This document shows, piece by piece, positions 8,064-25,891 of a DNA stretch of 64,000 nucleotides (its first letter is position 1; the number at the start of each line of letters is the position of its first letter). The DNA comes from Candidatus Thermosaccharophagus tengchongensis. GTDB lineage: Bacteria > Armatimonadota > Fervidibacteria > Fervidibacterales > Thermosaccharophagaceae. The position numbers were made by a program, and so were the translations under genes. The notes below the pieces were generated by a model. That model searched no databases. It was not told where the DNA came from and saw nothing but the letters and a program-made list of their open reading frames with translations. The DNA lies in NCBI GenBank assembly GCA_032161105.1, contig JAVHTD010000007.1. One strand, 5' to 3'.

Positions 8064-8346
8064 AAGTGCTTCACCTCGGTTGTTCATGTTGTAGCTTTAT
8101 CGCCAATTGCATCATCATAAATCTCATGGCGGGGGTAAGCCAACTTGCGGGTTGGTCACCCACAGTTCACGCCGATCATGCCAATCCAATCTCACATCTG
8201 GCGGCGTCATCAAAATCATCATGCTGGGCAAACTTGTGTCGGCGTAAAACCACCTACATTGTAGCGCGCAATATTTCACTGAGGTTTCTCCTGCTGGCGG
8301 TGACGGCGACTAATTGAGATTGATTGAGTGAGGAGTGGAGTGGGAT

Positions 8347-9486
8347 ATGAGTCAAGTGAGCAATCGCATGCTTGATGAAAGCGAGAATGGCGAGGATGTT
8401 CACTGGATGCGTTTAGCCATCAAGCTTGCGAGGAGGATGAAGGGGCAAACATCACCCAATCCGTGCGTTGGTGCTGTGCTGGTGAAAGAAGGGAGATTGA
8501 TTTCCAGCGGTTATCACGAGGGCGCTGGCACGCCGCATGCCGAAGTGGTGGCGCTCAAGAATGCCGGGGAGAATGCGAAGGGTTGCACACTTTATGTCAC
8601 GCTTGAACCATGCTGCCACTACGGGCGCACGCCACCGTGCACGGATGCAATAATAGCTGCGGGCGTAAAGCGAGTTGTGGCTGCAACGCTTGACCCAAAT
8701 CCATTGGTTAATGGGAATGGCGTAAGGAAGCTGCTTGAAGCCGGAATTGAGGTCAAAGTTGGCGTCGTTGAAGATGAGGCAAAGAAGCTCATTGAGGACT
8801 TCGCAAAATACATCGCAACAAAGGTCCCATTTGTCACGCTCAAGCTTGCATCAAGCCTTGACGGGAAGATTGCCACAAAGCTCGGTGAGTCTCGTTGGAT
8901 AACATCAGAGCGGTCAAGACGCATTGCACAAAAGCTGCGAAGAGAGCACGCTGCTGTTCTGGTCGGAATCAACACAGTGTTAGCCGATGACCCACTCCTT
9001 CTGGTCAGGTCTAAAGGTGTTCGCCGCCAGCCAATACGGGTTGTCGTGGACAGCAAAGCGAGGCTGCCAACATCAAGTGCGCTGTGCAGGACGCTGAGTC
9101 AAGCGCCACTGTGGCTCGCCACAACGAAGCATGCCGACGCTGAGCGATTAGCTGAGCTTGAAACTCTGGGTGTGCGCACGCTCATCGTGGACGATGCCAA
9201 TGGGAGGGTTGATTTGAGGAGCCTGATGAGGAAACTTGGTGAGCTTGAGGTCATGAGCGTGCTGATTGAGGGAGGCGGCGAAATAGCTTGGTCGGCGTTG
9301 AAGGATGGCATAGTTGATAGGGTTGTGTGGTTCATAGCGCCGATGATCATTGGCGGTAGGGATGCAAAGGATGCGGTTGCCGGTGAGGGCGTTGAGAGGC
9401 TCTCAGAGGCTTTCAAGCTGTGCGATATCAAGGTGAGGCGCATTGGCAGCGACCTGATGATTGAAGGCAGATTGCATCGCGGCTGA
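8347..9486 (+). CDS. ribD: Bifunctional riboflavin pyrimidine deaminase/reductase
   Basis: PNPCVGAV, HAE, TLEPCCHYGRTPPC, SLDGKIA, EGGG motifs; start at 8335 or 8347. Confidence 0.96.
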   Translation: MSQVSNRMLDESENGEDVHWMRLAIKLARRMKGQTSPNPCVGAVLVKEGRLISSGYHEGAGTPHAEVVALKNAGENAKGCTLYVTLEPCCHYGRTPPCTDAIIAAGVKRVVAATLDPNPLVNGNGVRKLLEAGIEVKVGVVEDEAKKLIEDFAKYIATKVPFVTLKLASSLDGKIATKLGESRWITSERSRRIAQKLRREHAAVLVGINTVLADDPLLLVRSKGVRRQPIRVVVDSKARLPTSSALCRTLSQAPLWLATTKHADAERLAELETLGVRTLIVDDANGRVDLRSLMRKLGELEVMSVLIEGGGEIAWSALKDGIVDRVVWFIAPMIIGGRDAKDAVAGEGVERLSEAFKLCDIKVRRIGSDLMIEGRLHRG

Positions 9487-9562
9487 GCGGGCAAAACATT
9501 GCGTGCCGAATCATTGGCAGCTTGCTAACGGTATGCAAACTTCATCCGGGGGTAGTTGGAAA

Positions 9563-10228
9563 ATGTTTACGGGCATAGTTGAGGAAGTTGGGCAAGTCGT
9601 AGCAGTTGAGCGCATGGGTGGTGGCGCGAGACTCACCATCTCGGCTTCGGTTGTGATGGATGACTTGAAGGTTGGCGACAGCATATGCGTCAACGGGGCT
9701 TGCCTGACGGTCACACGGAGGTCCGCATCGCGCTTCCAAGTTGATGTGATGGAGGAAACCATGCTCCGCACTAACCTCGCTTTCCTGAGGGTGGGCGATA
9801 AGGTCAACTTGGAAAGGGCTCTTAAAGCCACTGATAGGTTGGGTGGGCATTTTGTTCAAGGGCATGTTGATGGCACTGGAGTTATAGCTGGCATACAGCG
9901 GATGCATCGCTCATGGGTGATGAAGATAAACTGTGATGAAGCATTGACGCGCTTCATGGTCCCAAAGGGGTCGGTGGCTGTTGATGGAGTTAGCTTGACG
10001 ACGGTGGATTGCGGCAGTGGTTGGTTCACAGTCGCATTGATACCGCACACGCTGAGTGCAACGACGCTCGGAATGAGGCGCGTTGGCGATGTGGTCAACA
10101 TTGAAGTTGACCTGCTTGCAAAATACCTGCACAAGCTGCTGCAATCGCACTTAGCGCTGCAAATGCAAAAGGGCAGTGAAAGGCTCATTGAGTTGCTTGG
10201 TGATTCACCACCTCACATTCGCCAGTAA
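9563..10228 (+). CDS. ribE: Riboflavin synthase (alpha subunit)
   Basis: Canonical N-terminus MFTGIVEE at ATG 9563; GDSICVNGACLT, GGHFVQGHVD. Confidence 0.96.
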   Translation: MFTGIVEEVGQVVAVERMGGGARLTISASVVMDDLKVGDSICVNGACLTVTRRSASRFQVDVMEETMLRTNLAFLRVGDKVNLERALKATDRLGGHFVQGHVDGTGVIAGIQRMHRSWVMKINCDEALTRFMVPKGSVAVDGVSLTTVDCGSGWFTVALIPHTLSATTLGMRRVGDVVNIEVDLLAKYLHKLLQSHLALQMQKGSERLIELLGDSPPHIRQ

Positions 10229-10260
10229 ACTGCAGGACGATGATTGGAAGGTGATGGCGC

Positions 10261-11472
10261 ATGCCGCGCTCCACAATTGAGGAGGCAATTGAGGCATTTA
10301 AGCGCGGTGAGTTCCTGATCATCGTTGACGATGAGGACAGGGAGAACGAGGGCGACTTAGTCATCGCAGCTGAGAAGGTTACACCCGAGGCAATTAACTT
10401 CATGCTCAAGCATGGGCGTGGTCTTGTGTGCCTCGCAATCATCGGGCAAAGGCTGGACGAACTCTGCATACCGCCAATGGTCTCAAACAACACCGACCCA
10501 TTTGGGTCTGCGTTTGCCGTTTCAGTTGATGCCCACCCGAAGTTCGGCGTTACAACCGGCATATCCGCGCATGACCGAGCCACAACAATAAAGGTCATCC
10601 TTGATCCGAATACGAAGCCATCGGACTTGACTCGTCCGGGACACATCTTCCCGCTGCGCTATAGGGAAGGGGGCGTGCTCAGGAGAGCCGGTCACACTGA
10701 GGCAGCTGTTGATATGGCAAAACTCGCCGGGCTATACCCAGCAGCAGTGATATGCGAGATATTGCGTGATGATGGCACTATGGCAAGGTTGCCCGACTTG
10801 GAGCGCCTATCCGATGAGCATGGAATCAAGCTCATCACGATAGCCGATTTGATTGCCTACAGGAGAAGGACGGAAAAGCTTGTCCGCAAAGTCGCAACAG
10901 CGCGCTTCCCGACCATCTTTGGTGAATTCACAATGCACGCTTTTGAGAGCCTGATTGATGGAACACCATACATTGCGCTTGTGATGGGCGAGATAAACCC
11001 AGATGAGCCAATACTTGTGAGGGTGCATTCGGCTTGCGTCACCGGGGACGCACTTTTCTCATTGCGGTGTGATTGCGGAATGCAACTTCGCTTGGCTCTT
11101 GAGAAGATAGCTCAAGAGGGTAGGGGAGTGCTCGTCTACATCTCGCAGCATGAAGGGCGCGGAATAGGCTTGCTCAACAAGCTTAAGGCATACGAGCTTC
11201 AGGACAAGGGGCTTGATACTGTTGATGCAAATCTGCACCTTGGCTATCCGCCGGATTTGCGAGACTACGGGCTTGGCGCTCAAGTGCTCTATGAGCTCGG
11301 CGTCCGCAAGATGAGGTTGATGACAAACAATCCATCAAAGAGGGCTGGTCTTTTGGGCTATGGGCTTGAAATAGTTGAGAGAGTCCCATTGGAAGTCAAG
11401 CCGAACAGCGCAAATAGGGATTACCTGCGCGCAAAGCGGGAGAAGCTCGGTCACATGATTGATGTTGAGTAG
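10261..11472 (+). CDS. ribBA: Bifunctional DHBP synthase / GTP cyclohydrolase II
   Basis: DDEDRENEGD, RAGHTEA, RVHSACVTGD...RCDCG, EGRGIGL, TNNP motifs. Confidence 0.97.
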   Translation: MPRSTIEEAIEAFKRGEFLIIVDDEDRENEGDLVIAAEKVTPEAINFMLKHGRGLVCLAIIGQRLDELCIPPMVSNNTDPFGSAFAVSVDAHPKFGVTTGISAHDRATTIKVILDPNTKPSDLTRPGHIFPLRYREGGVLRRAGHTEAAVDMAKLAGLYPAAVICEILRDDGTMARLPDLERLSDEHGIKLITIADLIAYRRRTEKLVRKVATARFPTIFGEFTMHAFESLIDGTPYIALVMGEINPDEPILVRVHSACVTGDALFSLRCDCGMQLRLALEKIAQEGRGVLVYISQHEGRGIGLLNKLKAYELQDKGLDTVDANLHLGYPPDLRDYGLGAQVLYELGVRKMRLMTNNPSKRAGLLGYGLEIVERVPLEVKPNSANRDYLRAKREKLGHMIDVE

Positions 11473-11539
11473 CGGCACATGAAATGCTCTCGCAAAGCTT
11501 GGAATACGCCGTATGCAAATGAACCAAAGCGTTGGTGTT

Positions 11540-12748
11540 CTATCGTGCCCATCCAACTTTGGTTAACAGGATGGCAGTGGCGAGGATTGAGAGCGCTGCA
11601 CAAACCATGAATGCCACAGTGGCTCCGAGCGCTTCCCACAAAGCCCCAAACAGCAAGCTGGCGGGTAGCATGCCCATCCCGATTACGAAATGAAAAATTC
11701 CATAACCGCTTCCGCGAAGATGCTCGCTGACTAAATCAGCCACAATGGCTCTTTCTGCGCCCTCCGTCATGGCGAAGTAAAGACCATAAACGGTGAACAG
11801 AAGCCATATGTGAGTTGGCGATGAGGCAACGCCAAAGCCGGCATAGACCAACGCATAGGTAAGCCAGCCGAGCGCAATTGCTTTTATTCGCCCTATCCTG
11901 TCCGAGAGCATGCCGCCATATACACTCAAGGCGCTTTTGATGATGTGCAGCCAAGTCCAGAGCATCGGAATCGCATACTCCGGCACGCCGCATTGGTTCG
12001 CACGAAGCAGCAAGAAGGCATCACTTGAGTTGCTCAGAGTGAATGCGAATACCGAAGCCAATAGCCAACGAAAGCGCGCATCAAATTGTGACAGGCAGAG
12101 GGAAATGGGCTTTGAGCTCACAGCCGATACTTGAACCTCGCTCGTCTGGCTTAGGCGTGGGTCGCTGACGCCAAACCACAGCACAAAGAGGGATATCAGC
12201 GCAGGCACTGAGGCGCACAGGAACACAAGCCTGTATTGCCCACCAAATAGCGCAAGCAGCGCAAAAGCCGACATAGGTCCTATTAGCGCTCCGAGATGAT
12301 CAAGCGACCTGTGGAATCCGAAAGCGGTTCCACGAATGCCTTCATTGCATGCATGTGCAATGAGTGCGTCCCTTGGTGATGTGCGTATTCCCTTCCCAAT
12401 CCTGTCTACGAAGCGCAGCAGAAGCACTTGGTAGGCTGCATTGACAAAAGCCATCAACGGACGAGTTGCCCCGGCAAGCGCATAGCCTATGAATGTCAAA
12501 AGCTTATGCTGCCTTATGATGTCAGCAAGCCAACCGGAAATGAGCTTGAGCAGGCTCGCCGTCGTTTCAGCGATGCCCTCTAACAGTCCAATGAAAGCAA
12601 ACGAAGCTTTGAGCTCATGCCTGAGGAATAGCGGGAGAAGCGGATAGAGCATCTCGCTGCTGGCGTCATTCAATAAGCTGACGATGGCGAGCACTTTGAC
12701 AGCTCTCGGCAGCTCCTTCGTGGCTCTGAGCAGTGCAATTGAGCGCAT
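11540..12748 (-). CDS. MFS transporter
   Basis: About 12 hydrophobic segments; DASSEM, DRIGKGIRTSPRDALI, GMLSDRIGR. Confidence 0.88.
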   Translation of the reverse strand: MRSIALLRATKELPRAVKVLAIVSLLNDASSEMLYPLLPLFLRHELKASFAFIGLLEGIAETTASLLKLISGWLADIIRQHKLLTFIGYALAGATRPLMAFVNAAYQVLLLRFVDRIGKGIRTSPRDALIAHACNEGIRGTAFGFHRSLDHLGALIGPMSAFALLALFGGQYRLVFLCASVPALISLFVLWFGVSDPRLSQTSEVQVSAVSSKPISLCLSQFDARFRWLLASVFAFTLSNSSDAFLLLRANQCGVPEYAIPMLWTWLHIIKSALSVYGGMLSDRIGRIKAIALGWLTYALVYAGFGVASSPTHIWLLFTVYGLYFAMTEGAERAIVADLVSEHLRGSGYGIFHFVIGMGMLPASLLFGALWEALGATVAFMVCAALSILATAILLTKVGWAR

Positions 12749-12835
12749 TATATTCAATCCCCTTTGATGACATTCGCGTTGAGCGCCCAAGCGAGGTTTG
12801 GGGCACACAGCAAGGAAGCATTCTTGTTTGGCTGC

Positions 12836-13799: not shown

Positions 13800-14480
13800 A
13801 TGGGCGAGAGAATATGGCTTGCATGGAGCAGCGGAAAGGACTCAGCACTCACACTGCACATCATTCAACAGGATAGCAGGTGGAGCCATTTTGAAGTTTG
13901 CGCTCTGCTTTGCACCATCACCGAGGACTATGGGCGAGTCAGCATGCACGGTGTGCGCAGGGAGCTCGTGCTTGCCCAAGCCGAATCAATCGGCATACCA
14001 TTGGCTGAAGTGCTGATACCGGCAAAGTGCACCAATGATGCGTATGAGGAAGCCATGCGCACAGCCCTTGAAGCGGCTGCGAGGGACGGAATTGTTGGTG
14101 TTGCGTTTGGTGACATACACCTTTCGGATGTGCGTGAATACCGTGAGAGGCAAATGGCTCGTGTTGGCATGACGCCAGTATTTCCGCTGTGGGGGATGAA
14201 GCCGGGCGAGGTTGCGCTTAAGTTTTTGTCCCTCGGGTTTAAGGCGGTTGTCGTGTGCGTTGATTCAAAGCAACTTGATCCGGCGCTATGTGGTCGTGAA
14301 TATGATGAATCGTTCTTGAGCGAACTGCCGGAGCTGGTTGACCCGTGTGGCGAGAATGGCGAATTCCACACATTCGTTTACGACGGACCGACCTTTACAA
14401 AGCCGATTGAAATCCGGCGCGGCAGGGTGATCATGCGGGACGAGCGATTTGCATTCTGCGACCTAACTTTGGGCAGGTGA
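13800..14480 (+). CDS. PP-loop ATPase, diphthine-ammonia ligase (Dph6/MJ0570)-like family
   Basis: WSSGKDS PP-loop, MHGVR, FGDI, DPCGENGEFHTFV; ATG at 13800. Confidence 0.88.
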   Translation: MGERIWLAWSSGKDSALTLHIIQQDSRWSHFEVCALLCTITEDYGRVSMHGVRRELVLAQAESIGIPLAEVLIPAKCTNDAYEEAMRTALEAAARDGIVGVAFGDIHLSDVREYRERQMARVGMTPVFPLWGMKPGEVALKFLSLGFKAVVVCVDSKQLDPALCGREYDESFLSELPELVDPCGENGEFHTFVYDGPTFTKPIEIRRGRVIMRDERFAFCDLTLGR

Positions 14481-15526
14481 TGAGCGTGAGGGGTGACGAG
14501 CAGACTGTGGTTCTCAAGGAGGCGTCGTATTACGAGGTGCTCCCGGATGGTTCGGTTAAATGCGCTCTTGAGCCACGCCAGTGCATCATTCACGATGGAG
14601 AGAGGGGCTTCTGTGGAACAAGGCAAAACATAAAAGGCAAGCTTTGGTCATTGACCCACTCAAGAGTTGCCGTCGTTGACATTGAGATGCTTTACCATCA
14701 CCACATTTACCATGTCCTTCCGGGCGCATACTTTGTCACCGTCGGCACAGCCGGATGCAACATGAGCTGCCAATACTGTGAGACTGCCGCAATATCGCAG
14801 GCGACACCTGAGGCAGTGGAGAGCATACACGCAACACCACAAATGCTTATCGGGTTGGCGATTGAGCGCGGAGCTGTGGGGATACTGTTTGCTCACAACG
14901 AGCCAGTGGCAAGCTACGAATTCATGCTTGACACATTCAAGCTCGCAAAGGATTACAAGCTGCGCACTGCATGCCACACTGCCGCAAAGATATTCGCCAA
15001 ACCGCTCATTGAGCTGTGTCGCCACTTGGATGCCATCAACATTGACTTGAAGGCTTTTGACGAAGCCGTCTACGAAAGGCTATGTCAGGGAAGCCTTGAG
15101 ACGACGAAGGAGGCAATTGCTGTCATTTCAAAACTCGGCAATGTCTTCATTGAGGTGACCTACCCACTCGTGCCCGGATTTAATGATGAGCCGGAGCAAG
15201 TCAAGCGCATGTGTGAATGGCTGCTGAAGACAGCTGGAGATGAAGTGCCATTGCATTTCATTCGTTTCTTCCCGGCGCACAAGATGAAGGATGCCGCTCC
15301 AACGCCGATTGAACTCATCTATGAGCGCCGTGAGCTCGCAATGAAGATGGGTCTCAAGTATGTCTATGGTGGCAACCTTTTCGGCGACAAAGCCGAGTTC
15401 ACATACTGCGCCAAGTGCAAAGCTATAGTCATTGAGCGAGATGAGGAAGGCATCCCGACACTGCGTATGCGTTCAGGTAAGTGTGAAGCCTGCGGCAATG
15501 CCATCCCCGGAATATGGAAGGTTTAG
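14477..15526 (+). CDS. AmmeMemoRadiSam-type (PFL-activase-like) radical SAM enzyme, divergent paralog
   Basis: GCNMSCQYC cluster motif, NEP, NIDLKAF, LHFIRFFP, C-terminal CAKC and CEAC; overlaps the upstream stop (GTGATG). Confidence 0.85.
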   Translation: MMSVRGDEQTVVLKEASYYEVLPDGSVKCALEPRQCIIHDGERGFCGTRQNIKGKLWSLTHSRVAVVDIEMLYHHHIYHVLPGAYFVTVGTAGCNMSCQYCETAAISQATPEAVESIHATPQMLIGLAIERGAVGILFAHNEPVASYEFMLDTFKLAKDYKLRTACHTAAKIFAKPLIELCRHLDAINIDLKAFDEAVYERLCQGSLETTKEAIAVISKLGNVFIEVTYPLVPGFNDEPEQVKRMCEWLLKTAGDEVPLHFIRFFPAHKMKDAAPTPIELIYERRELAMKMGLKYVYGGNLFGDKAEFTYCAKCKAIVIERDEEGIPTLRMRSGKCEACGNAIPGIWKV

Positions 15527-15598
15527 TGGCTTTGGGGCGAGCGTGAACTTCCCCTTGTAAGTGGCGTATGGTGAGGGTGCATCCGTCAAATTGCACCA

Positions 15599-16765
15599 TC
15601 AGCGCCCGTGACAGACTGCGCAAGTCTCCTCTCGCTTGTGGCACTTTAGGCAAGCCGAACTTGGCTCAAAGCTTGCCACATCCTTGTGCTTGAGCGCGAA
15701 CCCCTCAGGATGCGGCAAGGGAACCCCGTGACATGCATCGCATGCATTCTTCCCGTGGCAGCGCTCACATAGCTTTTGCTCCTCCTTCTTCACCTTCGCG
15801 TGAGCCTTCCGATAATCCTTCGGATGCGGCATCGGTAAGCCATGGCAAGCATCACACCATGATTGCGTGTGGCAGCGCATGCAAAGGCTCGGGTTTAACT
15901 TTGCCTCTTTGTGCTTCCGCTCATATCCCTTCGGGTGGGGCATCTTGATGCCGTGGCATGCATCGCAGAATGAGCTTGAATGACACATCAGGCAGTTCTG
16001 TCCGGAAAGGTAAAGCTTGCCATGACGCTCAATGAAATCGGCTTTGGCGTGTGACGGTGGCTTTCTGACGATGTGGCACGCATCACAGAATGAGCGCTCA
16101 TGACATTGCAGGCATTGAGCTTCCTTACTGCTGGCAAGCGCCCCGTGCTTTGTGGCGAAGCCCTTCACATGGCTGGAGGGCTTGCGCGGCTTATGACATA
16201 GGTCGCAAAAGGTGTCACTGTGGCATTCCAAACATCGTTGCCTATCCTCTGTCTCGGTCGGGTGGCGCTCAAGCCAACCTTGGCTATGAGTTTTTGGCAG
16301 TGCCGTCTCGGGGCGTAAGTGGCACAGCGAACACTTTTTTGGGGCGCTCTTGCCATCATGGCATTCCAAGCACACATCCATTGGCACTGCGCCGTGTTTC
16401 GGATATTGCTGCCCAGCCTTGCGCCGCTTGATGTCCCTGTGACAATCGCTGCAATGAGCGCCTCGCTCAATGTGCTTCATGTGCGAAAACGCGATTCGGT
16501 AGGCGCTCTCACCGAGCGTGATGACATTATGGCACTCAAAGCACTCTAAACCATTGACGAGACGGAGGCGCTCATTAACCGGCTGTGAGCTGGCAAGCTG
16601 TTCAGTCCTGAATTGAAGCATGCTCTTTTCCGAATGGCGCCTGACAGCGCTCTCAACTTGGTGCATGTGTAGGATGAGCAATGCCGACAGCGCGCTCACA
16701 AGAACAATGGGTGCAAACATGAGCGCGAGTTTAAGCAGCGCGTAAGCAAATAGCCGTAGCTTCAC
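15599..16765 (-). CDS. Membrane-anchored multiheme cytochrome c with 16 CxxCH motifs
   Basis: 16 CxxCH counted; N-terminal hydrophobic helix; probable GTG start at 16765 (ORF track start 16813). Confidence 0.92.
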   Translation of the reverse strand: MKLRLFAYALLKLALMFAPIVLVSALSALLILHMHQVESAVRRHSEKSMLQFRTEQLASSQPVNERLRLVNGLECFECHNVITLGESAYRIAFSHMKHIERGAHCSDCHRDIKRRKAGQQYPKHGAVPMDVCLECHDGKSAPKKCSLCHLRPETALPKTHSQGWLERHPTETEDRQRCLECHSDTFCDLCHKPRKPSSHVKGFATKHGALASSKEAQCLQCHERSFCDACHIVRKPPSHAKADFIERHGKLYLSGQNCLMCHSSSFCDACHGIKMPHPKGYERKHKEAKLNPSLCMRCHTQSWCDACHGLPMPHPKDYRKAHAKVKKEEQKLCERCHGKNACDACHGVPLPHPEGFALKHKDVASFEPSSACLKCHKREETCAVCHGR

Positions 16766-16845
16766 CCCTCTAACCCCCAAACAGCAAAGTGCATGAGCAA
16801 CGCATTTACCCACATCAAATTGCGATTGTGCCCTTCGGGGCTGAT

Positions 16846-18468
16846 TCAGTCGCCCGAGATATGGCGCTCATATTCAAGGGCGTGTCTTTCCTTCAACTCC
16901 TTCAAGCTCATCTTGCCGGTGAGCCATACAAAGCTCATCGGGAAGACATCCGGGCGAAGGTGTGCAAAGTAAACATGGAAACAAAGGAGGGCAAATGTTG
17001 CGAGCACAGCCTCATGGCTGTGCAGCGCCTGTGCGATCTCAATGACCTGCGGCGATGTGCGTTCGGCGACGAATGGCGCCTGCCAGAGCATGAGCCCAGT
17101 TATGCCCATCATCAAAATGCCCCACCCTGCTGCCCAGTAAAGGAACTTCTCAACGAAGTTGTATCGCCCCATCTTCGGCGGCTCACGCCGTATGCGGAGC
17201 AGGAAGAGAAGCGAGTGATAAAAATCAACGAAGTCCTTGGTGGTCGGGAGCATCTCGGCTTGCCTGTTACCGCGAGCGAGTTGGGCGAACAAGTAGAGCA
17301 GGTGATAAGCGACAGCAAAGAGCATGACAATCCCAGCAGCTCGGTGTATGACGGCAGCGCTTTCAACTCCGCCAAGTAACCTCAAAAGCCGCCCCGAGAC
17401 AGGCGATGAGAAGCACTTAAGCGGCAAGCCAGTCAGCATCAGAACCATGACGCTGCTCATGAAGAGAAAGTGTTGGATGATTTGATGGACATTCCAGCGC
17501 TGCACATACCCCTTGAGCTCCCCGCACTCATTTCTGGAGGCACTGACACACCACAGCGCTGCCATCACAACGGCATCAAGCAGTGTGTATGCAAACATTG
17601 AAACGAGCACGATGATGACGAACCACTCAAAGAGCAAACTGATCCAATAGACTGCAGGTCGCTCATTTGGCGAAGCCAACCTGTGCGTAAATGTGAGGGC
17701 GAACTTTTCTCCGCCACCCTTGTGGCAGCTGCTGCACACGGATGCGCGCTTTGATGGGTGCATCGGTGAAGCTGGGTCGTTGGGCGGTAGTATGCTGTGA
17801 TGGCTATGGCATGTCATGCAACTCGGAGTGCGCCTGCTGCCAAGGCGCAGCTTCTTTCCGTGAAAGCTGCCGAGGTAAGTTGTGACTGTGTGCGGATTAA
17901 CTCCGTGTCGGAGCATCATCGCTTCGTTGGCATGGCACTTTGCGCATACCCATGCAACATTATCTGGGTGCGTCGGCGAGCGCTTGTCTTCGCTGCTGAG
18001 TATGTAATGGTTGCCATGACAATCAGTGCAAATCGGCGGCTCATTGCTGCCAGACAAAATACCCCTTGCATGTTCGCTTCGGCTGTATTGCTTAAACTCG
18101 CCGCTATGGCATTCAATGCACGCAACTAAAGCCGGCTGGGTGAGCTTTGGTAGGCGTCTTACAAAGGGCTCAAATCTCTCTTCGGCGCTGCTTCCCTTAC
18201 TGCACGCTTGCGAATTCACCGCAGGTTGATGTGAGCCACCCATCGGGCGCATGTTTGTATGGCAACTGACGCATTTGAATTTTCCGTGCACCGATGATGC
18301 GAACCTGTTTGGGTCAACATAGAGGCTTTGCGCCAATTCGCCCGGTAACTTTACATGGAGCTTTTTGTTTGCGTGGCATGTCACGCAATGCTCCTGTGGT
18401 GACGCGCATTCTCGCCACGACCACAGGGAGAGGATGATTGCGCACGCTGTCACCGATCTCCGAGTCAT
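16846..18468 (-). CDS. Multiheme cytochrome c (7 CxxCH) fused to a cytochrome b membrane domain (CbcL-like architecture)
   Basis: Signal-like N-terminus; CVTCH, CVSCH, CIECH, CTDCH, CAKCH, CMTCH, CSSCH; then TM helices with QH, IHR, LHSHEA, FHVY histidines and GRYNFVEK; ATG at 18468 after GAGGT. Confidence 0.9.
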   Translation of the reverse strand: MTRRSVTACAIILSLWSWRECASPQEHCVTCHANKKLHVKLPGELAQSLYVDPNRFASSVHGKFKCVSCHTNMRPMGGSHQPAVNSQACSKGSSAEERFEPFVRRLPKLTQPALVACIECHSGEFKQYSRSEHARGILSGSNEPPICTDCHGNHYILSSEDKRSPTHPDNVAWVCAKCHANEAMMLRHGVNPHTVTTYLGSFHGKKLRLGSRRTPSCMTCHSHHSILPPNDPASPMHPSKRASVCSSCHKGGGEKFALTFTHRLASPNERPAVYWISLLFEWFVIIVLVSMFAYTLLDAVVMAALWCVSASRNECGELKGYVQRWNVHQIIQHFLFMSSVMVLMLTGLPLKCFSSPVSGRLLRLLGGVESAAVIHRAAGIVMLFAVAYHLLYLFAQLARGNRQAEMLPTTKDFVDFYHSLLFLLRIRREPPKMGRYNFVEKFLYWAAGWGILMMGITGLMLWQAPFVAERTSPQVIEIAQALHSHEAVLATFALLCFHVYFAHLRPDVFPMSFVWLTGKMSLKELKERHALEYERHISGD

Positions 18469-18475
18469 CCCAACC

Positions 18476-19783
18476 TCACTCACCTGAATGCTCCTTATAA
18501 CCGCTTTCCAAACCATCCATAGCGCTGAGCAGCTCTGCGCACGCATCAATCACTCTTACTTCGTCCTCATCCATAGCCAATGTCTTGAGGCGCTCAATCA
18601 GCGGGTGAAGGAGGCGCTTAACCAAACGCCTCGTGAGCATATCAACCGTTTCTATCCCATCCACGCCGCGCACGGAAAGTTTGCCCATGAACTCGCTCAG
18701 TGTTTTTGAGCGCACTCGCTCCGCAGCTCTGAGCATGCTAACTATGGCTGGCTCAACTTGCTTTGAACGCCACCAGCGCCAGAAGGCTTCAACTTCCCTT
18801 TGGACAATTGCTTCGGCGAGCTGTGCTTCATGTTGGCGAAGCTTGCGGTATTCATCGGCTATGCTGGCAAGGCAGTCAATGTTAAAGAGCTTTAACCCAC
18901 CCAACTCGGCAACGCTTGGCTCAACATCCCTCGGCACGGCGAGGTCAATGATCAGCAGCTTCTTTGAGCCCCTCTTGCGGCTCACGAGCGCCCTTGCAAC
19001 CACATCTCGGCTCAAGACAAAGCTTGGAGAGCCAGTGCATGAGATAACGATGTCGGCACTCGGCAGCCAACATGGAAGTTCATCAAGCGGTATAGCTATA
19101 GCTCCAAACTGTGCAGCCACATCCGATGCCCGTTTGAGCGTCCTGTTTGCGATCACAATTTTACCAACGCCGCATTTCTTGAACAGGCGTAATGTGAGCA
19201 AGCCCATTTCTCCGAGCCCAATGAGCAGCAATGTCGCGTCGCCAAAGTCACCGTATTCTTGCTTTGCCATCTGAACTGCAGCGTGCGGTATTGAAGTTGC
19301 CCCTTCGGAGATGCGCGTCTCTGTGCGCACCTTCTTGCCGACGCTGAGGGCGTGCATGAATAGCTGTGAGAGGATTGCGCCACAGCACTTCATGCGCATG
19401 GCGAGCTCGTATGCATCCTTAATCTGCTTGAGTATCTGCGGCTCTCCGATGATCATTGAATCCAAGCCAGCTGCAACATGGAACAGATGAGCGCAAACAC
19501 CCTTGTCGCTGGCTACATAGAGTCCTGATACCAATTTCTCCCTCGGCATATGGTGTTGCTGACACAGGAACTCAACGAGCACCGCTGGGTCTGTGCCCTC
19601 AACGGCGGCATATATCTCGGCACGATTGCATGTGGAAAGGAGAACGACCTCATTTATCCCCTCAATTGAGCGCAGCGAGCGCAGCGCATGTGGCACATCA
19701 ACTTTGCACAGTGATAGCCGTTCACGCACATCAATTCCCATTGTGCGGTAGTTGCCACCAACAAGCACCAACTTAATCCCCAT
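18476..19783 (-). CDS. hemA: Glutamyl-tRNA reductase
   Basis: LSTCNRAEIY, AGLDSMIIGEPQILKQIK, IGLGEMG, IDLAVPRDVE; start uncertain (19783-19879). Confidence 0.95.
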   Translation of the reverse strand: MGIKLVLVGGNYRTMGIDVRERLSLCKVDVPHALRSLRSIEGINEVVLLSTCNRAEIYAAVEGTDPAVLVEFLCQQHHMPREKLVSGLYVASDKGVCAHLFHVAAGLDSMIIGEPQILKQIKDAYELAMRMKCCGAILSQLFMHALSVGKKVRTETRISEGATSIPHAAVQMAKQEYGDFGDATLLLIGLGEMGLLTLRLFKKCGVGKIVIANRTLKRASDVAAQFGAIAIPLDELPCWLPSADIVISCTGSPSFVLSRDVVARALVSRKRGSKKLLIIDLAVPRDVEPSVAELGGLKLFNIDCLASIADEYRKLRQHEAQLAEAIVQREVEAFWRWWRSKQVEPAIVSMLRAAERVRSKTLSEFMGKLSVRGVDGIETVDMLTRRLVKRLLHPLIERLKTLAMDEDEVRVIDACAELLSAMDGLESGYKEHSGE

Positions 19784-19999
19784 GCCGTTATGACGGGCAC
19801 TCATTTGCGCCATGTCATTCATCCAGCTTGTCACCCTAAGGTCACACCATTGCAAAGCTCGCAGCTGCATCCCGCACATGGTCTGAGGATGGGCAGCTTA
19901 ACGAATGCAGGATGGTTAAACAGCAAAGTCCATCAACCGAGTTACTGCCATTTGCAGGTTGCATCTTGCCACCCACCCCTGACCGCCGCCACGCTCATT

Positions 20000-22243
20000 T
20001 TAGCGCGAGCGTTGCAGCCGAATTTCAGCTCCGTCAATTTGATGGCTTACAAGTCGCCTCGGTGCCGCAAACGGAAACAATCCACCGAGCAAAATGAGAA
20101 TGCTGCTCAGGCGGAGCAAATTCATGAATGGCTTGATGCTCAATTCAACAAAAGCGTGCAATGAACTTGCTGACGCTTTCCGCCGCTCAACTGAGAGCCT
20201 TATCATCCCCTCATCGGCGTTCATTGCGAGTATGGAGAATGTCGCGCTTTTATCTGGCAAGCTGTCATCAACTCCCTCGCCTGAGCTCGTCAGCCCAGGC
20301 GAGACAGTGTGACGCTCCCCAGTTGCCACTTGATACACTTCAAGCACTGCCCTTGCAATGAACTCACCTTCGTGACCAAAGCGATGTCCTCTAACATCAA
20401 ACTTGACGAATCGTATGCTCATGCCGAATGCCCGTCTCTCCTCGCCCCTGCGCAGCACCAAGATGGCACGCTCAACATCCCACAGAAGCTCAATTGGAGA
20501 CGCATAGATGTCTTTGAACGGCAGCACCCTTATTTTCGGCTGGCGAACAATGCCGTATGGACTGTCGTAAATTCCGACTTGCATAATGTGCCTACGCCTG
20601 CCATGCTCAACTGTCAATGTCAATGTCAATTTGGCGCGATTGCCGCTTTGGCTCTCAATCACGCAACTAATCCTATGTCCAAGCGCGGTCTTGCTCTGCC
20701 CGCTTGCAAGCTTCAATGTTTGTGAGCGCTCAAACGATGCCGAAAGCGATATGCCAAGCATCAGCAAAGATATGCCGATATGGGATATGGAGCTCCCGAG
20801 ATGACGCCAATTGCGCTTGGTGATGCGCCAAAGCAAGTGAAGGTTGATTAGAGCAGCTGCAGTTGATGCCAGTGTGGCTGCAACATGAAATGGGTTCCGC
20901 ATGCCAAAGAGAAACGCAGCGGAAGCAGCTATGCACCCGAGCAAAAGCGGTATAGCAAGCAGCCGAGCGTTTACCCCGCTTTGGTAATATGCGTTAACGC
21001 TGAGCAGGAGTAGCAATGCCAATGCCATCGGTGCGAGCGCATGGTTGTAGAAGCTCGGGGAAGCGCCCAAGCTCACCCCAAATGGCTTTGTGAGGAGCGG
21101 GAGCGATGTCCCGAGTTCAACAATGCACGCCATAAGGGCGAGCAATAGAGCTGCGCACCACAGGGTGAAGTTGGTGGAGCGAATTGATGTCCATGCCGGT
21201 TTCCTTTCGCCGCTGTGCCAATGGCGAATTAGCATTGCGGCGCTGATGGCTGTGCAAGCGATAAGCCAGATGAAGATGATTGCGTTGGTTAAGCCGTGCG
21301 CTTCAGCAAAGACATGCACAGAGACTTCACGCAAGATGCCACTCCTTGTGATGAATGTCGCATAGATGACGCTCACATAGGTAAGCACGGAAAACAGAGC
21401 ACCCATCCTTTTAGCCGCGCCATTGCGCCTTTGAATCGCCAAGGTGTGGAGCAATGCCGTTAGCAACAGCCATGGCACAAGCGATGCGTTCTCAACCGGG
21501 TCCCAACCCCAATAGCCACCCCATCCGAGAACTTCATAGCTCCAGTATGCGCCGGCGATTATGCTTGCACCGATTATGAGCCACGCAAGCATTGTCCACC
21601 GATGCGCGAGATTGAGCGCCTCAAAATCTTCCGGCTCGCGCAGGAGCAGGAACGAGAGCGCATATGGTGCGGATGTGAGCGCGTAACCAAGGAACATTAG
21701 CGGCGGATGAATTGTCATCCAAAAGTTGCGCAGCAGTGGGTTAAGCCCGTGACCATCAATGGGTCTTTGTGGGAGCACTTCAAATGGGCTTTTGCAAGCC
21801 AGTGCCACAAGCAGAAACAGCTGTGCGAACGAAAGTAGCGCCACCGCGCATGGCGCGCCTTTGCCGAGCGAATTGGATGCTCTAATGAAAATGACCCCGA
21901 TGAGCAATCCGAACCATGCCCATAGCAACATTGAACCTTCCTGACCAGCCCAAAAAGCGCTCATGCGATATTGCAATGGCAAATCTCTGGAGGTGTGTGC
22001 AGCCACATAGGCAACTTCAAAGCGCAGGTCGCAAAGCAGCACCATAAGGATGGCTGAGGCAATGGTCGCACAGAGAAATGACAGCACCATGCTGATATGT
22101 GCCAGCCATCGCACACCAGTTGCGTTAGTTGCTTTGAGGCTTTGCAGCGCGCTTGCAATTGCGCTAACGATGAGCAATATGGTAGAGGCGTAAACCGTTG
22201 CCTTCCCAATGCTCGGCAGGACGAAAGCGGCATGCACATTCAA
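20000..22243 (-). CDS. ccmF: Cytochrome c heme lyase, CcmF/NrfE family
   Basis: FWAGQEGSMLLW, GLNPLL, IHPPLMFLGY, WSYEVLGWGGYWGWDPVENAS, TRSG...SVHVF. Confidence 0.93.
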   Translation of the reverse strand: MNVHAAFVLPSIGKATVYASTILLIVSAIASALQSLKATNATGVRWLAHISMVLSFLCATIASAILMVLLCDLRFEVAYVAAHTSRDLPLQYRMSAFWAGQEGSMLLWAWFGLLIGVIFIRASNSLGKGAPCAVALLSFAQLFLLVALACKSPFEVLPQRPIDGHGLNPLLRNFWMTIHPPLMFLGYALTSAPYALSFLLLREPEDFEALNLAHRWTMLAWLIIGASIIAGAYWSYEVLGWGGYWGWDPVENASLVPWLLLTALLHTLAIQRRNGAAKRMGALFSVLTYVSVIYATFITRSGILREVSVHVFAEAHGLTNAIIFIWLIACTAISAAMLIRHWHSGERKPAWTSIRSTNFTLWCAALLLALMACIVELGTSLPLLTKPFGVSLGASPSFYNHALAPMALALLLLLSVNAYYQSGVNARLLAIPLLLGCIAASAAFLFGMRNPFHVAATLASTAAALINLHLLWRITKRNWRHLGSSISHIGISLLMLGISLSASFERSQTLKLASGQSKTALGHRISCVIESQSGNRAKLTLTLTVEHGRRRHIMQVGIYDSPYGIVRQPKIRVLPFKDIYASPIELLWDVERAILVLRRGEERRAFGMSIRFVKFDVRGHRFGHEGEFIARAVLEVYQVATGERHTVSPGLTSSGEGVDDSLPDKSATFSILAMNADEGMIRLSVERRKASASSLHAFVELSIKPFMNLLRLSSILILLGGLFPFAAPRRLVSHQIDGAEIRLQRSR

Positions 22244-22379
22244 TCACCCTTAAAGCCGCCACTGAAGTTATGTGCCTTCGCATTTTGGCGGTTCAAAACA
22301 TTGCATGTGATTTGAGATTGGTTACCCACTGCTTGTTTCAATTCGCTGCGGTGCAATGAGAGTTGCATCGGCTTCAATG

Positions 22380-23702
22380 TCACTCCATCCGAAAATAAGG
22401 GCGATGCTGCGGCGCGAGGTAGCGCTCAACATATTCACCCCATGGCTTCCTGTAAGTTCGGCAGATGTGTTTGTTGGCTTCCTCGTCACCAATTATTAGC
22501 TCGTTTTTGCTATCCCAACGGATGACTCTCCCAAGCTTAAACGCTATGTTCACAAGGTGCAGGGCACTGGTTGAGAGATGTCCCCACTCAATTGGCGCTA
22601 CTGTTTGCTGGCGGCTCTTAACGCAGTCAAGGAAGTTGCGCACATGTGGTGGATGTAGCGGAGAGCCGCCGCTTTTTACAGGTTCTGCCCTGCCCGGCTC
22701 CGGTATCAGTTCAAATCCCTCCCGAGTTAACACGAGCGTCCCATTAGTGCCGTAAAAGGCTATCCCGTATCCTCTCCCCTCAATCGGGCGTGCGCTTGTA
22801 TGGTAGACGGATGCTTGCACATAAAAGTCGCCGTAGTCAAGGAAAGCATCCTGCGTGTCCGGCGTTTCCCTGTTATCTTGGAGCGCATACTTGCCGCCGA
22901 CCGACATGACTGCCCTTGGGGCAGTCACGCCAAGTATCCAGTGAACTGTATCAATGTGATGAATTGTCCATGCGAGCATGAACCCACCGGAGTAATCCCA
23001 AAAGAACCAATAGCCGGGCGCATTGCACCTATTTCGGTTGAACTTTCGGTATGGGGCCGGCCCAAGCCACATATCCCAATCAACGCCTGCTGGCGTGTCT
23101 TCATCCGGTGGGTTGCCGATGCCGAAAGGTGTTTCGTTCCACGCATTCCAGACACGCACCCTCGTTATTTTCCCGATGGCGCCTTTGCGTATCAAATCCC
23201 TTGCTGCAGCGTAATGGGCACCGCTCAACTGTTGTGTGCCGTGTTGCGTAATTCGGTTGAAGCGCTTTGCCGCATTCACTGCTGCTCTCCCTTCGGCTAT
23301 GTTATGGCTCAGTGGCTTTTCAACATACACATCTTTTCCCGCCTCGCATGCTGCAATTGTTTGGATAGAATGCCAGTGGTCTGGTGTGGCTATAAAGACG
23401 GCGTCAATGTCCTTTCGGTCAAGCAGCTGCCTGAAGTCTTTGTATGGGGTCGCCTTCCCGTCGGTCATTTTGACGGCTGCTGCGAGCCTATCGTCCTTTA
23501 CATCGCAAACTGCCGCTACGACTACATCCGGGTTAGCCATTGCAACCCTCATGAGTCCTTGTCCCATGCCACCAACGCCGATGAAGCCAAGAACTACCTT
23601 TTCATTTGCGCCGAATAGTGAAGTGGAGCGTGTGGTCAAAAAGAGCGCGCCGACTCCGATGAACTCTCGCCTTGAGAGCTTTGACATGCCACCTTCCACC
23701 AT
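22380..23702 (-). CDS. Gfo/Idh/MocA family oxidoreductase with Tat signal
   Basis: SRREFIG leader; IGVGGMG, ATPDHWH, YVEKP, WDMWLGPAP; start at 23702 or 23687. Confidence 0.92.
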   Translation of the reverse strand: MVEGGMSKLSRREFIGVGALFLTTRSTSLFGANEKVVLGFIGVGGMGQGLMRVAMANPDVVVAAVCDVKDDRLAAAVKMTDGKATPYKDFRQLLDRKDIDAVFIATPDHWHSIQTIAACEAGKDVYVEKPLSHNIAEGRAAVNAAKRFNRITQHGTQQLSGAHYAAARDLIRKGAIGKITRVRVWNAWNETPFGIGNPPDEDTPAGVDWDMWLGPAPYRKFNRNRCNAPGYWFFWDYSGGFMLAWTIHHIDTVHWILGVTAPRAVMSVGGKYALQDNRETPDTQDAFLDYGDFYVQASVYHTSARPIEGRGYGIAFYGTNGTLVLTREGFELIPEPGRAEPVKSGGSPLHPPHVRNFLDCVKSRQQTVAPIEWGHLSTSALHLVNIAFKLGRVIRWDSKNELIIGDEEANKHICRTYRKPWGEYVERYLAPQHRPYFRME

Positions 23703-24115
23703 GAGCCATCACCTCACTGCAGCGCGTGGAGTTTTAAACTCACCGCGTTTTGCGCCATAGCTATCTTGCTTTGATGCCGCTATCATTGTAACCCCGTCTG
23801 GGAAGGAAATCAAAAGGAGAGGAAGCCACGCTGAACTTAAAGTGAGCTTATGAGCAGGCTCGTCACCAGTTGGTTGTCACCGTCGCTCTTGACTTGGTCA
23901 GCGGGTCAATGCACACCCATTACGATGCCCGCATCATTATGGGCACGAAAACCTCAGTGAGTGATAAGCCGCCATATGATATGTGACAGGCATTTTGCCC
24001 ACCACGACCCCTTAAAGGGTGCCGCTGTGTTGAATAAGGGCTCAGAGTGGGCTTTGAACGCTGCTTTCCGTGTCAGCTATGCCTACGCGGATTAACTGAG
24101 CGTGGATAGCAACAT

Positions 24116-24165
24116 GGCATGGGCATCCCGCCCACGAGAAATTTCATGGGCAAGATGCCCATGCC
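24116..24165. repeat. REP-like inverted doublet
   Basis: GGCATGGGCATCCCGCCCACGA-GAAATT-TCATGGGCAAGATGCCCATGCC; the arms are mutually inverted and each is internally palindromic. Confidence 0.7.
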
Positions 24166-24193
24166 GCTTGCAAAGGGAAAACTACCGACGGCT

Positions 24194-25891
24194 TTAAGGG
24201 GTAACGGTGCCCCTCTTGCCGGCGATGCGAGCCTCAAGACCATCAACGGGCGTCAATTCAGCGTTTAGGAAATCTTGGATAGTTCGGTTAGTCACAACAG
24301 CACCGACTTCCCAAGGGACTTGACTGCCGGCTGGAATGCCCCAACTGTTGTTCCAGCCACTTAAGCCGCTTAGGTCAGGCAAAGTGTAACTTGTTTGCCC
24401 GCCAAGCCAACCGGCGCTCAAGCCGACAAACCAGGAGCGAGAAAATGCCTGAATTGCTTGTCGGGAGCGCTTTTTCGGTCGTGAAAGTTGTGGGTTACTG
24501 ACCAAGCGTTGGCGAAGGTCTATCCCACCACCCTCTCCGAATTGGGCAAAATAGGCTTGCGCTCCTGAATAGGCATCCCAACTCGCAGTGAAGCGGGTAT
24601 AAGGTGTCGTCGCTGCTACCCTCACAGAAGCGTTGCCAAAGGGAGAAGGTAAAGTGACAGAAAGATTGGTCGGCGCTTTGAAGTAGCGCTCAATTAGCCG
24701 AGTGGTGGTGCCAGTCTCAGCTGTTGCGGATAGGTTATGGATATCATTTCCAAACTGCTTGGCAGTTGGAACGGCAGCAAAGGGGAACTGGATGGTTGGA
24801 GGGGGGACTTCAAATCCACCACCAGTCCAGGCTCTGGTTCCGTTGTGGCTTATGAAGGACACCTCACCGCCAGCCAGTTCTCCTGATGAAACGCCATTAA
24901 TGACAGCATTATGGGTTTCAGGCACAAAGGCTTCAGAGCTGTTGAAGTCAATGTTGATGGTTGTGTTCCCTGATATGACAACATCGTGCTGGATGAGCCC
25001 CTTGTTTGGAGTAGGCCCCCCTGGGAACCTAAGTGCAATCAAGTCATAGGTGCCAGGTGGGACTTGCAATGAGTAGGTGTTGGAAGGGGGAAAGACAGAA
25101 GCATATGAGTTACCCATATAGACCACTGCTCCAGCACCTTCAAGACCACCGATCGTTCCCGAGACAGTGACGGTGTTAGCGGAAGGCGCTTCTTCACTAA
25201 CCAAGTTGATTTGCGAAAGTTCGTTGACGGTGGCGTGGATGATGTTGACTTCCACTTCGGTCATCCCATCAGGCCCAGATGGTCTGACAAACACAACCGC
25301 CAATCCATATCTGCCATTGGGGGCACGAATGGTGAGAGTGTATTGAGGCGCAATGGTCGTTTCAATTCGTTGCCAAGGACCGTCTCCATCTTGGAAAGCG
25401 ATAAAGTCAGGTGGAGCCTGTTGCCTGCCTCGGTAAGTCCGGACCACAACCGTCCCTGTAGTGATTCCCGACATCACAATCTCCAAGTTGGTTCGCTGAC
25501 CTTCGGCAAGGGTCGCTGTCCCGCTGCCTGCAGCCACTGTCTGGTTGTTGTTGTCTTTTGCTTCCGCAGTGACACGCTTGAAACCAACAGGTAGGTTAGG
25601 ATAGACCTTCGTTACGACAGTTTGATTTTGGGGTCGAGGGATGGAATCTCGGATGGGGTTTACTAACCCATCGCCTGTAATGGTAACATCTACCTTCACC
25701 GCTGAGGGCGGTATGACACGGGATTTGCTCCAATCAATCGTCAGCACTATTTCTCCTGTGCGATTGCTTCCGATGTTGCTACTACTTTTAGCGCTGGGCG
25801 CTTTGCTACCGCCACACCCAGCGATGATGAACGCCATTGCTGCCACGACCGTCAGGCTAATTCCAATCACCCAAAGGGTTCGCCTTTTCAT
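24194..25891 (-). CDS. Hypothetical beta-rich lipoprotein (565 aa)
   Basis: SD GGAGGTG; basic N-region, hydrophobic core and lipobox IAGC followed by GGS; Thr/Val/Gly-rich beta-strand pattern. Confidence 0.8.
   Translation of the reverse strand: MKRRTLWVIGISLTVVAAMAFIIAGCGGSKAPSAKSSSNIGSNRTGEIVLTIDWSKSRVIPPSAVKVDVTITGDGLVNPIRDSIPRPQNQTVVTKVYPNLPVGFKRVTAEAKDNNNQTVAAGSGTATLAEGQRTNLEIVMSGITTGTVVVRTYRGRQQAPPDFIAFQDGDGPWQRIETTIAPQYTLTIRAPNGRYGLAVVFVRPSGPDGMTEVEVNIIHATVNELSQINLVSEEAPSANTVTVSGTIGGLEGAGAVVYMGNSYASVFPPSNTYSLQVPPGTYDLIALRFPGGPTPNKGLIQHDVVISGNTTINIDFNSSEAFVPETHNAVINGVSSGELAGGEVSFISHNGTRAWTGGGFEVPPPTIQFPFAAVPTAKQFGNDIHNLSATAETGTTTRLIERYFKAPTNLSVTLPSPFGNASVRVAATTPYTRFTASWDAYSGAQAYFAQFGEGGGIDLRQRLVSNPQLSRPKKRSRQAIQAFSRSWFVGLSAGWLGGQTSYTLPDLSGLSGWNNSWGIPAGSQVPWEVGAVVTNRTIQDFLNAELTPVDGLEARIAGKRGTVTP

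Follow-up and report, generated by a model that had tools for sequence, protein, structure and literature searches.

A b/c fusion cytochrome and an anchored 16-heme cytochrome behind hemA, a probable menaquinol outlet in an Armatimonadota genus

Background

Geobacter CbcL joins a periplasmic part with nine CX2CH motifs to a HydC/FdnI-like membrane half, and homologues of CbcL, MtoC and MtrH, which often adjoin genes for c-type cytochromes, have been proposed to link the quinone pool with periplasmic cytochromes (PMC6295460). By the account given there, no sequence feature tells the quinol-oxidising from the quinone-reducing members of the family, and the main text of that survey makes no mention of Armatimonadota. 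A 64,000-nucleotide stretch of the genome of Candidatus Thermosaccharophagus tengchongensis (hereafter the window) carries, as four successive genes on the minus strand, ccmF, hemA, a fusion of a seven-heme c domain with a diheme cytochrome b (bc7) and a 16-heme cytochrome c (c16). The reading favoured here is that ccmF and hemA are housekeeping genes and that bc7 and c16, a two-gene cytochrome module behind hemA, probably serve as a menaquinol-oxidising outlet. The pair may be the cell's only respiratory electron outlet.

A preliminary description of the window had put the cluster forward as an undescribed system. For bc7 this does not hold, since the protein falls in a widespread family treated in print as CbcL/MtoC/MtrH homologues (PMC6295460). 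Targeted literature searches found no published description of an operon of hemA, ccmF and multiheme genes or of this Armatimonadota operon. The parts themselves are familiar; what is new is that the pair takes a minimal form, that c16 has apparently lost a quinol-reactive head, that both genes follow hemA and that the pair seems to be the sole outlet.

Results

The source genome (2.74 Mb in 44 contigs, 97% complete) holds the window on contig C7 (C7:47523-111522), and the nearest named protein relatives are in metagenome-assembled genomes of Armatimonadota. In window coordinates, with lengths in nucleotides (nt) or amino acids (aa) and open reading frames abbreviated ORFs, the cluster is arranged as follows.

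20000-22243, minus strand: ccmF, 747 aa, System I heme lyase, the sole CcmF of the genome
19880-19999, minus strand: spacer between ccmF and hemA, 120 nt as far as the first ATG and up to 216 nt with M33 (19783) as the hemA start
18476-19879, minus strand: hemA, ORF of 467 aa, glutamyl-tRNA reductase, single copy, true start probably at 19783-19813
16846-18468, minus strand: bc7, 540 aa from the ATG at 18468; the longest ORF, 16846-18549, has 567 aa
15599-16813, minus strand: c16, longest ORF 404 aa; probable start the GTG at 16765, giving 388 aa

The 388 aa obtained from GTG-16765 equal the length of the closest homologues of c16. Between the hemA stop and the bc7 ATG lie 7 nt (GAG TGA ggttggg ATG), with a purine-rich stretch before the ATG; the bc7-c16 spacer measures 32-80 nt. 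CxxCH motifs number 23, far beyond chance, 16 of them in c16 and seven in bc7; CxxxCH, CxxxxCH and CxxCK occur in neither protein. The four adjacent minus-strand genes, the 7-nt gap and the 23 motifs of the preliminary description are confirmed by ORFs, sequence and motif counts, and its gene identities (ccmF, hemA, b/c fusion, 16-heme c) by Pfam and NCBIfam. Because the arrangement recurs on independent assemblies, it is not an assembly artefact.

The bc7 protein comprises a cleavable-looking signal peptide, seven periplasmic bis-His c hemes, an extra transmembrane (TM) segment (270-310) and a four-helix diheme cytochrome b of FdnI/HydC type. Pfam assigns Cytochrome_C7 and Ni_hydr_CYTB (PF01292, 37.1 bits against a cut-off of 30.1); with TIGR01583 the b domain scores 62 bits, below the cut-off of 116. 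The bc7 family profile covers the whole of Escherichia coli FdnI (1kqf_C, E 5e-10), and the c part matches HmcA (1h29, E 6e-11). When the best 120 homologues are aligned with mafft, the seven CxxCH motifs and their seven distal His are 88-100% conserved and His333, His375, His483 and His498 of the b domain 100% conserved, the latter also in two further alignments; four invariant His fit two b hemes. Heme counts among these best 120 homologues are 7 in nine, 9 in 12, 11 in 46, 13 in 26 and 17 in 14, so that the seven hemes of bc7 are the minimum and 11 the mode. An N-terminal periplasmic domain with several CX2CH motifs, followed by a C-terminal HydC/FdnI-like diheme b TM domain, is the architecture of CbcL, MtoC and MtrH, and on this architecture, as described in PMC6295460, bc7 is assigned to that family. 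The CbcL-like nature of the fusion, proposed from the outset, is upheld.

In c16 a single N-terminal TM helix precedes 16 CxxCH motifs, first four and then six diheme repeats (C..CH-x4-C..CH) of about 40 residues each, and the Pfam assignment is again Cytochrome_C7. Across the four species of the genus 58% of columns are invariant, but 32/32 Cys and 32/35 His are. Thirty-two Cys and 32 His are exactly enough for 16 bis-His hemes, which indicates clear purifying selection. Homologues of c16 mostly have 600-700 aa and a NapC/NirT N-terminus (PF03264). In the alignment two long relatives (P0139, P0127) place two CxxCH right after the helix; c16 and the short relatives have none there. PF03264 reaches 22.4 bits on c16, under its cut-off of 24.1, and only at profile positions 104-168, the C-terminal part of the profile. 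The hallmark of a NapC/NirT quinol dehydrogenase, a helix followed by hemes 1 and 2 as the quinol site, is lacking in c16. On the alignment, c16 derives from long multihemes of NapC/NirT type, apparently having lost two membrane-proximal hemes, and can be read as an anchored wire with no quinol site of its own. Homology of c16 to HmcA was not found, either as a match to NF045713 (NCBIfam) or among its PDB matches.

The genes ccmF and hemA are the cell's ordinary genes for heme attachment and heme synthesis. CcmF contains Cytochrom_C_asm (PF01578, 122 bits) and CcmF_C (40.8 bits), each above its cut-off, scores 240 bits with TIGR00353, under the subfamily cut-off, and has the WWD motif as WGGYWGWD at residue 241. 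With both domains and the motif present, and with CcmC and CcmE encoded in the same genome, it is a System I heme lyase. A special lyase of NrfE type, which attaches heme at CxxCK, was considered and rejected: the cluster proteins have no CxxCK, and NrfA was not found in the source genome. PF01578 occurs in just two genes of that genome, the ccmF of the cluster and ccmC on contig C11, where ccmE is next; hemB is also apart from the cluster, on contig C20. Of the other ccm and porin-cytochrome genes that the preliminary description had in view, ccmC-ccmE were recovered from the source genome, and CcmH and MtrB/PioB were not. HemA scores 393 bits with TIGR01035 (cut-off 209.55) and has the GlutR_N (from ORF residue 40), Shikimate_DH and GlutR_dimer domains of a glutamyl-tRNA reductase. 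hemA was found in 35/41 genomes, in one copy in each, the source genome included.

Twelve hemA neighbourhoods were fetched from other Armatimonadota, and ORF labelling recovered hemA in 10. At six of the 12 loci, from five families (G005, G009, G027, G028, G030, G033), ccmF stands a few genes upstream of hemA in the absence of any multiheme gene; a SirC-like gene lies between the two in G009, G027 and G030. The fullest order, identified by Pfam in G027 (L049:2480-11398), is ccmC-ccmE-ccmF-sirC-like-hemA-hemX-like (PF01578)-hemC, and this order (ccmC-ccmE-ccmF-sirC-hemA-hemX-hemC) is ancestral in Armatimonadota. Since the ccmF-hemA adjacency is seen in five other families with no multiheme gene, it is older than the cytochrome pair and independent of the cytochromes. 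In the genus of the window ccmC-ccmE have moved away and no sirC-like gene stands between ccmF and hemA; a hemX-like gene, which would be a third PF01578 gene, was not found in the source genome and seems to have been lost. The cytochrome pair occupies the place held elsewhere by hemX and hemC. The idea of a dedicated ccmF/hemA supply line had to be given up, each being its genome's only copy and the adjacency occurring without cytochromes in 6/12 loci. A link to hemA is rational all the same, because bc7 and c16 hold 23 of the 40 CxxCH sites found genome-wide in source-genome ORFs with at least four motifs; the remaining ORFs of this kind have five, four, four and four, and all appear to be membrane-anchored or periplasmic.

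Two side observations concern these genes. The G027 cluster is followed by a FAD_binding_2/Succ_DH_flav_C gene, presumed nadB. Cytochrome c maturation takes a streamlined form: CcmE carries CPS[RK]Y, with Cys for the usual His, in all five Armatimonadota genomes inspected (L007:7069-8339 on contig C11 of the source genome, which has CPSRY; L043, L044, L049 and L053), and CcmH was not found in the source genome. For archaea and Desulfovibrio the CxxxY variant of CcmE is on record (PMC9084895).

Homologues of bc7 are present in 28/41 genomes, comprising 3/3 congeners, 19/20 genomes of the sister family (f2) and 5/17 from other families. All three congeners keep the block ribBA ... radical-SAM gene, c16-bc7-hemA-ccmF-GFO/IDH/MocA gene, with 16 and seven motifs, and the spacing of hemA and bc7 in the four species of the genus is 7 nt (window), 6 nt (one relative) or a 4-nt overlap (two). 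Such tight spacing fits a putative co-transcription of hemA with the cytochromes. The four-gene synteny was found in 4/4 species genomes of the genus and on three same-genus metagenome contigs. Close relatives recovered by the metagenome scan were of the same genus only (99, 63 and 61% identity); relatives at 45-47% (P0007, P0008) were not recovered. Elsewhere hemA adjoins a bc homologue at 0/80 genome loci and 0/45 non-genus metagenome loci. Among the lineages examined, the cytochrome pair lies behind hemA in this genus only, so that the conserved synteny expected by the preliminary description holds within the genus and fails beyond it.

A bc gene followed by a c16-like gene is also present on metagenome contig L139. 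In G033, from another family, a bc8 gene is followed, with a 4-nt overlap and in the order of the window, by a gene for a 28-heme protein with a full NapC/NirT head. Loci of the sister family (G004, G007, G009, G021, G005) have, in order, a Rieske gene, a fusion of about 830 aa and a fusion of about 690 aa that joins an 11-heme c part to an FdnI-like b part. The first of these fusions consists of cytochrome b/b6, a subunit IV-like part, a monoheme c and about 16 heme repeats (17 CxxCH in all), and its repeats match c16 at 32% identity (E 1e-33). The set, in appearance a bc-type complex that has heme wires built in, is found at L023:4777-9910 (G004), at L024, L025 and L031 and partly at L030; G036 and 13 sister-family genomes have cytochrome b frames 814-859 aa long. 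In G005 CopD-COX2-COX1 lie between the two cytochrome genes, and G009 has two bc copies with a NosZ-like gene nearby. hemA and ccmF of sister-family genomes are away from the cytochrome loci.

A family search of species-representative genomes, with a 10-sequence alignment as query, gave more than 605 confirmed loci, of which 80 were kept. These are mostly from Acidobacteriota and also from NC10, Chloroflexota, Ignavibacteria, Opitutaceae, Bacteroidota, Gemmatimonadota and further groups, with the following content.

Called ORF with the b domain: 74/80 loci
b-domain ORF fused to at least five CxxCH: 73/80 loci
Other ORF with at least four hemes within two genes: 47/80 loci
c16-like ORF within two genes: 3/80 loci
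Rieske match in the locus: 7/80 loci
ccmF-like match in the locus: 1/80 loci
hemA, COX1, COX2 or NosZ match in the locus: 0/80 loci

It is thus a general trait for bc fusions to be paired with further multihemes, and the hemA link is specific to the genus. Association with a known complex (Rieske/cytochrome b, COX) exists in the sister family and is not general. By the preliminary description's own standard, homologues always clustered with a known terminal reductase or dehydrogenase would refute it; they sit with Rieske/cytochrome b genes in the sister family and, at one locus, beside COX, and in other phyla mostly do not adjoin a known reductase. As a separate pattern, Acidobacteriota and some others have a 9-13-heme bc fusion followed by a conserved 6-heme protein of about 500-550 aa that is not c16-like, at 25/80 loci at least by eye (L058, L060, L061, L069, L071, L079, L093-L095, L100-L106 and others).

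The respiratory inventory of the genus gives the pair its probable role. COX1, PF00033 cytochrome b and cytochrome bd were not found in the source genome or in the three congeners (96-98% complete; genomes of the genus are 2.4-3.4 Mb); of the 20 sister-family genomes 17, 15 and 13, respectively, have them, the bd matches being partial. The source genome also gave no Rieske, COX2 or NosZ (blastp) and no Rnf or Nqr above cut-off. Its sole Succ_DH_flav_C protein, in a search for Sdh/Frd, is NadB; this FAD_binding_2 protein, encoded beside nuo, was considered as a fumarate reductase and rejected (NadB, 537 bits against a cut-off of 453). MtrB/PioB (PF11854) had no match there, other porin types not being searched. 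A 340-aa neighbour of a DmsE-like tetraheme was rejected as a porin, as it has a twin-arginine translocation (Tat) leader and by eye looks soluble rather than a barrel. Present are a nuo cluster, nuoA-C-D-H-J-K-L-M-N (L041:7928-17253, contig C2), three NuoB-like genes on other contigs, NuoE/F-like genes beside an FdhA-like gene (L039), MenA (TIGR00751, 103.5 bits against 102.15) and a cluster like those of membrane group-4 NiFe-hydrogenases with a molybdopterin subunit. Because Nuo and MenA are present and no oxidase, bc1-type cytochrome b, fumarate reductase or nitrite reductase was found, the pair is most likely a menaquinol outlet. By this argument from absence in draft genomes, bc7/c16 is the only recognisable menaquinol-oxidising candidate in the genus.

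Other multiheme genes of these genomes were recorded in passing. At L004:2755-7213 the gene for an ApbE flavin transferase is three genes away from that of a membrane-anchored tetraheme, the C-terminus of which matches the 'UshA-like' cytochrome family. A tetraheme c fused to a ThuA domain (L006:6275-7549, contig C29 of the source genome) is full-length only in the source genome and G003 among the 41 genomes, the others having ThuA alone. Large DUF6785/DUF6784 membrane proteins adjoin the DmsE-like tetraheme (L005:2004-10369, contig C16 of the source genome) and bc fusions (L025:5208-7199, G009).

Around the cluster, the downstream genes are convergent. The neighbour upstream of ccmF, on its strand, encodes a GFO/IDH/MocA oxidoreductase (22380-23702) with a twin-arginine (Tat) leader; this protein matches glycoside 3-dehydrogenase weakly (148.8 bits, the cut-off being 750) and at 84-89% identity within the genus exceeds all four cluster genes in conservation. 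Scanned ORFs of the 64-kb window include no molybdoenzyme, hydrogenase or porin gene, in agreement with the earlier remark that no catalytic subunit is adjacent. The Fe-S protein closest to the cluster, an AmmeMemoRadiSam radical-SAM enzyme (14477-15526, opposite strand), is unrelated to it, and Rfam had no match over 15000-24500. A riboflavin operon (ribD, ribE, ribBA) with a divergent transporter of the major facilitator superfamily occupies 8335-12808 of the window, at a distance of 3-7 kb from the cytochrome genes; this block too is collinear across the genus.

Discussion

In the favoured reading the bc7-c16 module would have come to lie directly behind hemA, probably on one transcript with it. 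The diheme b domain of bc7 would exchange electrons with menaquinol/menaquinone and pass them to the seven c hemes, and c16, anchored beside bc7, would extend the chain by 16 hemes into the periplasm. Since c16 has lost the quinol-site hemes of NapC/NirT, it would depend on bc7. We infer that the two proteins pair physically from their being neighbours in 4/4 genomes of the genus, in G033 and on L139, and from the sister family, where the repeats are fused to a cytochrome b beside the 11-heme bc fusion. Flow would be outward: Nuo would feed menaquinol, bc7 would oxidise it, and c16 would carry the electrons on to an acceptor in the periplasm or outside the cell, while net energy conservation would rest on the Nuo complex. 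If hemA, bc7 and c16 are co-translated, heme synthesis would rise with its main consumer.

Several points weigh against this reading. The evidence for co-transcription is the gene spacing; the ccmF-hemA spacer (120-216 nt) could hold a promoter of its own, a promoter and terminator scan returned chance levels as judged by shuffled sequence (5 and 9 sites, with 5.7 and 9.1 expected), and the data sets with DNA near-identical to the window are all hot-spring DNA and none RNA. Synteny within the genus is collinearity of the whole region from ribBA to the GFO/IDH/MocA gene and alone does not prove a functional link to hemA. No outer-membrane conduit or terminal reductase that could form the end of the chain was identified in the source genome. 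The nuo cluster does not have nuoB, nuoI, nuoE, nuoF or nuoG in place, and absences are drawn from drafts of 44-170 contigs. Homology to FdnI presumably implies a quinone site facing the cytoplasm, in which case outward flow would dissipate membrane potential; in formate dehydrogenase-N the FdnI-type architecture works inward.

That the present pair likewise works inward is judged unlikely. It would then take electrons from periplasmic donors and reduce menaquinone through its b domain, in a redox loop that generates proton-motive force like that of formate dehydrogenase-N. The FdnI type of the b domain agrees with this, and donor candidates exist: Tat-exported GFO/IDH/MocA sugar dehydrogenases, such as the product of the gene just upstream (22380-23702) with its twin-arginine leader and weak glycoside 3-dehydrogenase match, or the ThuA-tetraheme fusion on contig C29. 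Against them, adjacency of a GFO/IDH/MocA gene was not seen outside the genus, the ThuA fusion is full-length in just 2/4 genomes of the genus, and no enzyme was found that would re-oxidise the resulting menaquinol. The published account of the family, which gives no sequence feature separating the two directions (PMC6295460), leaves room for inward flow.

The remaining two explanations concern the origin and purpose of the cluster. A self-contained module, in which a dedicated CcmF and HemA raise heme supply for an extracellular conduit or capacitor, as first proposed, is improbable. It would account for the tight hemA-bc7 spacing in 4/4 genomes of the genus and agrees with the fact that no other heme c sink of the genome is as large as these two proteins (23/40 multiheme sites). 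Copy number and phylogenetic distribution largely refute it: ccmF and hemA each have one copy, they were neighbours before the cytochromes joined them and are so, with no cytochromes alongside, in five other families, ccmC-ccmE and hemB are elsewhere, no porin-cytochrome or MtrB gene was found, and hemA stands by a bc homologue at none of the 80 genome loci and none of the 45 non-genus metagenome loci. Still less credence is given to an evolutionary leftover: the pair would be what is left of a Rieske/cytochrome b-multiheme complex after the loss of aerobic respiration, and would now do little or nothing. The sister family does have Rieske, the cytochrome b::multiheme fusion, the 11-heme bc fusion and COX, and the versions in the genus are smaller (seven hemes against 11, the cytochrome b part missing), as are its genomes (2.4-3.4 Mb). 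A remnant fits poorly with genes that have no frameshifts or internal stops and that have kept 23 CxxCH, 32/32 Cys and 32/35 His of c16 and the four b-heme His across species differing at 23-39% of residues.

With the pair taken as a menaquinol outlet, a wider reading may be offered tentatively, and as a whole it is rather doubtful: that the genus has shed all canonical terminal oxidases and reductases and respires through a 7-heme quinol oxidase of CbcL type and a 16-heme anchored wire, with heme synthesis coupled by translational placement behind hemA. As acceptor, extracellular minerals, humics, flavins or a mat partner come into question, or daytime scavenging of O2. Should bc7 and c16 be the sole menaquinol outlet, the lineage would be a simple natural test of the minimal link between quinone pool and periplasm, a b/c fusion plus an anchored wire. 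It would then also show by what route respiratory electrons leave a fermenting degrader of polysaccharides that lives in a mat with a diel oxic/anoxic cycle. The same diheme-repeat wire stands on a bc1/b6-type cytochrome b, a NapC/NirT head or a bare anchor according to lineage, which suggests that multiheme modules evolve by swapping membrane heads. The hemA linkage would be a modest, testable case of cofactor supply coupled to the main cofactor consumer.

Comparison with known systems

Desulfovibrio Hmc likewise combines a 16-heme periplasmic cytochrome with a membrane cytochrome b, and the c domain of bc7 resembles HmcA; c16 itself, however, has no HmcA match, and Fe-S subunits of HmcB-F type are lacking here. 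With NapC, NirT, NrfH, CymA and their long multiheme relatives c16 shares the N-terminal anchor and heme-packing motifs; it differs in lacking the first two hemes by the helix, in its 16 hemes, 12 of them in six diheme repeats, and in scoring below the Pfam cut-off. FdnI (1kqf chain C) agrees with bc7 in the full-length profile match and four invariant His, but bc7 has no FdnG/FdnH partner and carries in their place a fused 7-heme c domain, together with one extra TM helix. In the Rieske/cytochrome b complex of the sister family, diheme repeats of c16 type adjoin a bc fusion as they do in the window, whereas in the window's genus no Rieske or cytochrome b was found, and the two genes stand in the opposite order and after hemA. 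CbcL, MtoC and MtrH share with bc7 the N-terminal periplasmic multiheme c domain, the C-terminal HydC/FdnI-like diheme b domain and the adjoining genes for further c-type cytochromes; CbcL has nine hemes and bc7 seven, and bc7 comes from Armatimonadota and is sited behind hemA.

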